From Patescibacteria group bacterium (GTDB taxonomy: Bacteria > Patescibacteriota > Patescibacteriia > JAQUQO01), in contig JAQUQO010000001.1 in assembly GCA_028716045.1 (NCBI GenBank), forward strand, positions 320,942-384,941: a stretch of DNA of 64,000 nt, in the 5' to 3' direction. This document shows positions 33,701 to 33,910 of the stretch, in pieces. The notes beneath the pieces were generated by a model, which saw nothing but the letters and a program-made list of their open reading frames with translations, did not search any database and was not told where the DNA came from. Within the stretch, counting starts at the first letter, position 1, and every line of letters begins with the position of its first letter. A program made the position numbers and the translations under genes.

Positions 33701-33910
33701 TTATTTACCAATATATTCAAATCTCGAAATTTTCTTTCCGTTAACCTCAGCTTCTTCGGTAAACATTTTCAACGGTCACGCCCATAAATCATGATTTCCA
33801 TAAAGGGCATGATATACCACTAATTCCTCTAATGTTTCGCTGTGTTTGGCGACAACAATCACTTCGTATTCATTACCCTTGTAATGTCTATATTTTCCTA
33901 ATTTGAGCAT
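33701..33910 (-). pseudogene. DUF1653 family gene interrupted by a single in-frame TGA
   Basis: MLKLGKYRHYKGNEYEVIVVAKHSETLEELVVYHALYGNHDLWA[TGA]PLKMFTEEAEVNGKKISRFEYIGK. Read through the TGA (33776-33778) it is a full-length 68-aa DUF1653 protein. Confidence 0.6.

Follow-up and report, generated by a model that had tools for sequence, protein, structure and literature searches.

The stretch of DNA analysed here, referred to as the window, is 64,000 nucleotides long, has 40% G+C and contains 50 open reading frames (ORFs) of at least 100 amino acids, all intact under genetic code 11. On its minus strand, secA is followed by a metalloprotease-like ORF with a HEXXH motif, by a GrpB-family gene, and by a frame of the DUF1653 family that is interrupted by one in-frame TGA (Table 1). 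In translation, the minus strand from 33910 to 33701 reads MLKLGKYRHYKGNEYEVIVVAKHSETLEELVVYHALYGNHDLWA, stop, PLKMFTEEAEVNGKKISRFEYIGK, stop: 44 codons are followed by TGA as codon 45, by 24 further codons and by the TAA terminator, and the base after the TGA is C, giving a UGA-C context. An earlier interpretation made from the letters alone (the sequence-only reading) had described a complete DUF1653 protein of 68 amino acids when the TGA is read through; the frame stands, as the full Pfam profile is matched, but the length does not, because 68 sense codons plus the TGA make 69 residues. Elsewhere in the DUF1653 frame there is no frameshift and no second internal stop. No second DUF1653 copy and no release-factor gene was found within the 64-kb window. 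The 3555-codon ORF that had been reported as intact is indeed present and uninterrupted; at 3555 amino acids its product is a giant protein of the kind typical of some Patescibacteria.

Table 1. Positions of the DUF1653 frame, its neighbours and related features (window coordinates unless a locus or contig is named).
Feature	Position	Strand	Basis or remark
secA	35384..38077	-	ORF and Pfam domains; 1.47 kb upstream of DUF1653
Orphan secA 3' tail (GGSGKKYKKCHGR and stop; …KYKKCHGR and stop)	35307..35333	-	50 nt past the secA stop, outside ORFs
Degenerate secA-tail copy	35130..35154	-	ends in the ATG of the 211-aa gene
HEXXH-motif (HELGH) metalloprotease-like ORF, 211/249 aa	34497-35246 (NCBI 35132-34497, 211 aa)	-	no Pfam match
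GrpB-family gene	33912..34439	-	Pfam GrpB, 147 bits; TAA stop 1 nt before the DUF1653 ATG
Junction, AAAAAGTGCCGTAGTAAATAA T ATG	33908..33932	-	last six codons of GrpB (KKCRSK and stop) and DUF1653 start
DUF1653 (PF07866) pseudogene frame	33701..33910	-	69 codons and TAA, one interruption; Pfam and 87% identity to P0001
DUF1653 start codon, ATG	33910..33908	-	
Codons 1-44, the part still translatable (b1-b3 and start of b4)	33779..33910	-	Pfam, 65.5 bits alone; AlphaFold2 model of P0001
In-frame TGA, codon 45, at invariant Arg	33776..33778 (plus-strand 'tca')	-	sequence, homologue columns and three assemblies
Codons 46-69 and TAA, the conserved C-terminal third (end of b4, helix, b5-b7)	33701..33775	-	Pfam, model
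DUF1653 terminator, TAA	33703..33701	-	
Palindromic element, first copy	33541-33662		between the DUF1653 pseudogene and the GIY-YIG gene
Palindromic element, second copy	45220-45369		
NUDIX gene	31810..32277		TGA terminator beyond the last Pfam domain
Elp3-like radical-SAM/GNAT gene	43126..44790		TGA terminator beyond the last Pfam domain
ORF of 3555 codons	48196..58863	-	intact
Second nonsense allele of DUF1653, L050	JBBIVB010000008.1, 3001-3225		in-frame TAG at invariant W43
Loci with DUF1653 1-8 nt past secA: L050, L087, L088, L028, L011, L005, L015, L008	DUF1653 start at 3001 or 4001		
Loci with secA-tail copies	L007 2319-3000; L009 711-1231; L021 1987-3000; L006 about 1541-1570; L014 766-1216		

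With X placed at the TGA, residues 5-66 of the frame align to positions 1-62 of the 62 in the DUF1653 profile (97.1 bits, E 7.5e-28, against a gathering cut-off of 23.5 bits), so the profile is matched from end to end across the stop. The 24 codons beyond the TGA add approximately 32 bits, in the same frame, to the score of the first 44 residues alone (65.5 bits); thus the interrupted frame is real, far beyond chance. The residues in the other columns that are invariant or near-invariant among 120 homologues are all kept (G5, Y7, H9, K11, Y15, A21, S24, E25, T26, Y33, L36, Y37, W43, F50, R63 and F64). Members of the family have an uninterrupted ORF with the Arg of the LW-x-R-P motif at position 45, and here that codon is TGA; because the codon of the invariant Arg45 is a stop, the frame is filed as a DUF1653 pseudogene and not among the functional members of the family. 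A protein look-up of the truncated 44-amino-acid product returned no gene on record, which carries little weight, as gene callers had made no such call. The literature on DUF1653 yielded one incidental mention in a proteomics study, and a search with the accessions of the metagenome-assembled genomes (MAGs) and sequencing runs yielded nothing.

The start of DUF1653 lies 1-8 nt beyond the secA stop codon in many Patescibacteria, often after a single base (TAA-T-ATG), with a junction of ancestral type that ends in GSGKKYKKCHGK and a stop, followed by T and by ATG CTN AAA TTA. About 24 of 80 genome loci have secA on the same strand, no more than 2.2 kb upstream. The DUF1653 of the window is the ortholog at this secA-linked locus, from which it is now separated by the HEXXH-motif ORF and the GrpB gene. 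The junction between the end of GrpB and DUF1653 is a copy of the secA-tail::DUF1653 junction of relatives: it differs from the consensus AARAARTGYCAYGGNAAATAATATG by 2 mismatches, with 0.00 matches expected (100 shuffles), and the orphan tail just past secA differs from the consensus by 1 mismatch, again with 0.00 matches expected. The inserted genes that separate secA from DUF1653 are thus flanked by copies of the 3' zinc-finger (SEC-C) tail of secA. The same bracketing is seen in at least five other Patescibacteria genomes (loci L007, L009, L021, L006 and L014), each with a tail copy directly before the DUF1653 ATG and with secA ending 0.5-1 kb upstream; at L009, the inserted cytidylyltransferase-like gene ends with a complete SEC-C motif. 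The recurrence of these copies suggests that the conserved secA-tail DNA is a recurrent site, or hot spot, of insertion or recombination.

A collection of 5.8 billion protein clusters yielded 1564 matches to the frame, nearly all of 68-77 residues, the best of which (P0001) is 87% identical to the frame in the window. When the best 120 of these 1564 matches are aligned, position 45 is Arg in every protein (120 of 120), within the motif L-W-[VA]-R-P-L-K-M-F, and codon 45 is an Arg codon at all 80 loci that were mapped by tblastn in GTDB species representatives; even the distant homologue with a solved structure, 3BE3, retains Arg45. The sequence-only reading had assumed a conserved Arg at the place of the TGA, and these columns bear it out; the homologues read Arg at this site and continue past it, so orthologs do not all end at the same place. 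Because all six Arg codons are used at codon 45 (CGA 15, AGG 15, AGA 15, CGT 13, CGG 12 and CGC 10 of the 80 loci), selection acts on the amino acid, at the level of the protein. TGA occurs at codon 45 in none of the 80 loci. When 241 million JGI metagenome records were scanned for the TGA variant of the motif, L-W-[VA]-TGA-P-L-K-M-F (pattern YTN-TGG-GYN-TGA-CCN-YTN-AAR-ATG-TTY), a single match (L084) came up, which is in an unrelated frame and is attributed to chance. The TGA allele of the window is singular. The nearest relatives carry AGA, CGA and AGG at codon 45, so that CGA to TGA and AGA to TGA are both possible; the C-to-T change from CGA that had been proposed remains a plausible origin but not a unique one, AGA to TGA being also a single step.

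Compared with its nearest relatives, the DUF1653 frame has dN of 0.06-0.08 and dS of at least 1.2 (dN/dS approximately 0.05), and thus the history of the gene has been dominated by strong purifying selection; across classes of Patescibacteria, DUF1653 identity is 75-88%. Both values count against a pseudogene, in that loss of a gene so constrained would not be expected to be neutral. With Arg restored at codon 45, the frame scores 141 bits in a leave-one-out HMM comparison, which ranks it at the 58th percentile among 193 homologues, and it has only two or three residues (V19, H34, A54) that are private with respect to the 120 closest proteins, a number equalled or exceeded by 17.5% of intact homologues. 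Long-standing decay is therefore unsupported, as neither the score nor the number of private residues lies outside the normal range. Apart from the stop, the remainder of the gene is intact, and because nothing else in it has decayed, the nonsense event is recent; by comparison of sequences it would be recent relative to the history of the gene, the closest relatives compared being at 87-88% protein identity. A second nonsense allele is found in a Candidatus Veblenbacteria MAG (L050), in which a TAG at the invariant W43 lies two codons before the TGA site of the window and is of independent origin. That secA-adjacent gene is more decayed, with A21V in an otherwise invariant column, G19E and an altered C-terminus. 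It is an independent pseudogene, and therefore loss of DUF1653 does occur in the phylum. As an observation apart, DUF1653 proteins of 61-74% identity occur in MAGs labelled as DPANN or other archaea (L019, L020, L029, L030, L038, L044, L051, L067) and likewise in MAGs of Bacteroidota, Verrucomicrobiota and Planctomycetota (L017, L023, L024, L032), the cause being conservation of unusual strength, horizontal transfer or contamination during binning.

The perfect preservation of the frame past the stop would be predicted by a recent event and equally by functional readthrough, in which a near-cognate or suppressor tRNA, or the insertion of selenocysteine, carries translation past the UGA to give a full-length, functional DUF1653, perhaps at a regulated low level. 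All 24 codons past the TGA are preserved in frame, and the stop lies in a UGA-C context, which in E. coli is the weakest and leakiest context for termination. TGA is also the rarest stop of the window, terminating 3 of the 50 ORFs of at least 100 amino acids while TAG terminates 10 and TAA 37, although as a trinucleotide TGA outnumbers TAG in the window as a whole (1797 versus 1136); rare use of TGA as a stop may be a trait of the lineage. Against these points, the site is one of invariant Arg and not of Cys or selenocysteine; UGA is not known to be decoded naturally as Arg, and near-cognate decoding would place Trp at the invariant position. No other coding-looking frame split only by TGA was found in a six-frame scan of the window, and TGA terminates two well-supported genes, the NUDIX gene and the Elp3-like gene, beyond their last Pfam domains. 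TGA is a stop elsewhere in the window. An alternative code in which UGA specifies an amino acid is rejected on the basis of the scan and of these two terminators, as the sequence-only reading had already held in stating that the genome does not use code 25. A stem-loop or SECIS-like element downstream of the stop had also been suggested as something to look for: in the 90 nt that surround and follow the TGA, the minimum free energy is -15.6 kcal/mol compared to a mean of -12.6 for shuffled sequences (z = -1.23, with 19 of 200 shuffles as stable), which is not significant. The window has no Rfam match at the gathering score and none at E <= 1, and it contains no tRNA genes. With these three results, selenocysteine and a structured recoding signal are rejected, and a selenoprotein is rejected also because homologues carry only Arg at the site, never Cys or selenocysteine. 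Programmed readthrough is not supported, since neither the 80 genome loci nor the JGI scan shows a stop conserved at codon 45, the closest relatives in this comparison being at 87-88% protein identity. The earlier alternative of readthrough or recoding, with neither a recurrence of TGA nor a significant downstream structure in its favour, is thus considered highly unlikely. The leaky UGA-C may let through a little full-length protein carrying Trp at position 45, as noise and not as a programme.

The same TGA is present in an NCBI MAG (GCA_028711565.1, contig JAQTRY010000001.1, positions 259203-259205), located through an exact match to the GrpB protein, and in the Logan assemblies of runs SRR22315506 and SRR22315508, which are run-level assemblies of separate runs made with a pipeline different from that of the MAG. 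The MAG sequence and the two Logan sequences (L001, L002 and L003, respectively) are identical to the window over 410 shared bases, TGA included. An intact allele, which would be expected to be approximately 99% identical, is absent from the collection of 5.8 billion protein clusters, which includes Logan gene calls and in which the best match is the one at 87% identity. These data bear on two further alternatives. In the first, the TGA is the majority allele of a community in which intact cells persist, so that the lineage keeps the gene. A metagenome consensus can hide minor alleles, and a mutation as recent as the undecayed sequence suggests could still be segregating, but both separate runs assemble the TGA version and no intact allele has been assembled anywhere in the protein collection; persistence of the intact gene in this way is judged very improbable, and the TGA allele is probably fixed in the population. 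In the second, codon 45 of the organism is CGA or AGA, and the T is a mistake made in building the consensus. MAG consensus sequences can contain errors, and Illumina errors are known to be more frequent in contexts such as the GGGCG run that precedes the site. Because the TGA is identical in three assemblies, two of them from separate runs, and no intact version is found in the protein collection, a consensus error is unlikely in the extreme, and the sequencing error that the sequence-only reading had listed among its alternatives loses its footing: the CGA that reads were to reveal if the assembly were wrong does not appear at the level of assemblies, which all have TGA. The stop is genuine.

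The Logan contigs break at a CCCCGCC..GGCGGGG hairpin that belongs to a palindromic element of 120-150 nt, of which the window has two copies, one of them next to the pseudogene. The element consists of GTCTTTGCGA, a variable GC hairpin and GAAGCAATCTCTAATACA, and, further on, TATCAGRGATTGCTTC, a variable hairpin and TCGCAATGACA; the core GAAGCAATC occurs 5 times in comparison with 0.6 occurrences expected. No Rfam match was found for the palindromic element. A multi-copy mobile GIY-YIG gene as the cause of the contig breaks is unsupported, as only this locus carries the GIY-YIG gene.

The consequences of the stop for the protein can be estimated from the AlphaFold2 (AF2) model of P0001, the 87% identical homologue (pLDDT 85.8), in which strands span residues 5-11, 14-25, 29-35 and 42-46, a helix spans residues 47-51, and further strands span residues 53-56, 59-62 and 64-68. 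The model superposes on the crystal structure of a DUF1653 protein (3BE3) with a TM score of 0.79 and matches Tudor, chromo and SH3-like barrels weakly. Residues 45-69 make up about one third of the modelled fold, and a stop after residue 44 is predicted to remove most of b4, the helix and b5-b7 of a small seven-stranded, SH3-like mini-domain; the fragment of 44 residues would be non-functional. The chance that this fragment forms a working protein together with a C-terminal peptide, translated from a new start at TTG (codon 47, at 33772) or ATG (codon 49, at 33766), borders on the negligible, for although these starts lie only 3 and 9 nt past the TGA and termination-reinitiation over distances of a few nucleotides is known in bacteria, no Shine-Dalgarno-like sequence precedes them, the break falls inside strand b4, dividing it, and takes out the invariant Arg45, and no other family member among 120 proteins and 80 loci is split in this way.

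The best explanation of these data is that the frame is very probably a recent and ordinary nonsense pseudogene of the secA-linked DUF1653 gene, the first of the alternatives offered by the sequence-only reading, which is favoured by the reproducible TGA, the invariant Arg at its position, the want of support for recoding and the undecayed state of the rest of the gene. In the proposed sequence of events, a single base change would have converted codon 45 from CGA or AGA to TGA; translation, probably coupled to termination of GrpB, would stop at codon 45, where release factor 2 is expected to terminate; and the product would be a peptide of 44 residues, leaving the gene inactivated. It is very doubtful that UGA45 is read through often enough to be of use, or that the gene works as two pieces, such that a functional secA-linked DUF1653 is retained; if readthrough were true, it would represent an early step toward reassignment of UGA in a lineage of Patescibacteria with the standard code. 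For annotation, the recent nonsense pseudogene means that positions 33701-33910 are to be recorded as a DUF1653 pseudogene, for which neither an alternative code nor selenocysteine is needed. Together with the L050 allele, it shows that Patescibacteria can lose this small protein in spite of its otherwise very strong conservation. The stop codon itself is of small consequence, and the secA context is the more useful result: linkage to secA is a testable lead to the function of DUF1653, a family with a solved structure and no known role, and an example of such a lead is DUF1653 as a candidate partner of the C-terminal tail of SecA.

Compared to the DUF1653 family and to its structure from Bordetella bronchiseptica (PDB 3BE3), the frame in the window shares the full profile, the other invariant residues and, through the model of its homologue, the fold (TM 0.79), and differs in that the Arg45 codon is a stop, so that no intact member can be encoded. 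With the known systems of UGA recoding (SECIS-dependent insertion of selenocysteine and genetic codes 4 and 25), it shares an in-frame UGA within a conserved gene of a genome of the Patescibacteria type. In codes 4 and 25, UGA is read as Trp or Gly, and such codes are known from the Gracilibacteria and Absconditabacteria, which belong to the same superphylum. The window differs from these systems in that the site is one of Arg and not of Cys, Trp or Gly and has no SECIS-like fold, and from codes 4 and 25 in that approximately 18,600 codons contain no other in-frame TGA and TGA is a true stop. With ordinary nonsense pseudogenes of bacteria it shares a single premature stop, an intact and conserved frame, intact orthologs, reproducibility among assemblies and a second allele (L050); what is unusual here is the linkage of the family to secA and its otherwise very strong conservation, and nothing material differs.
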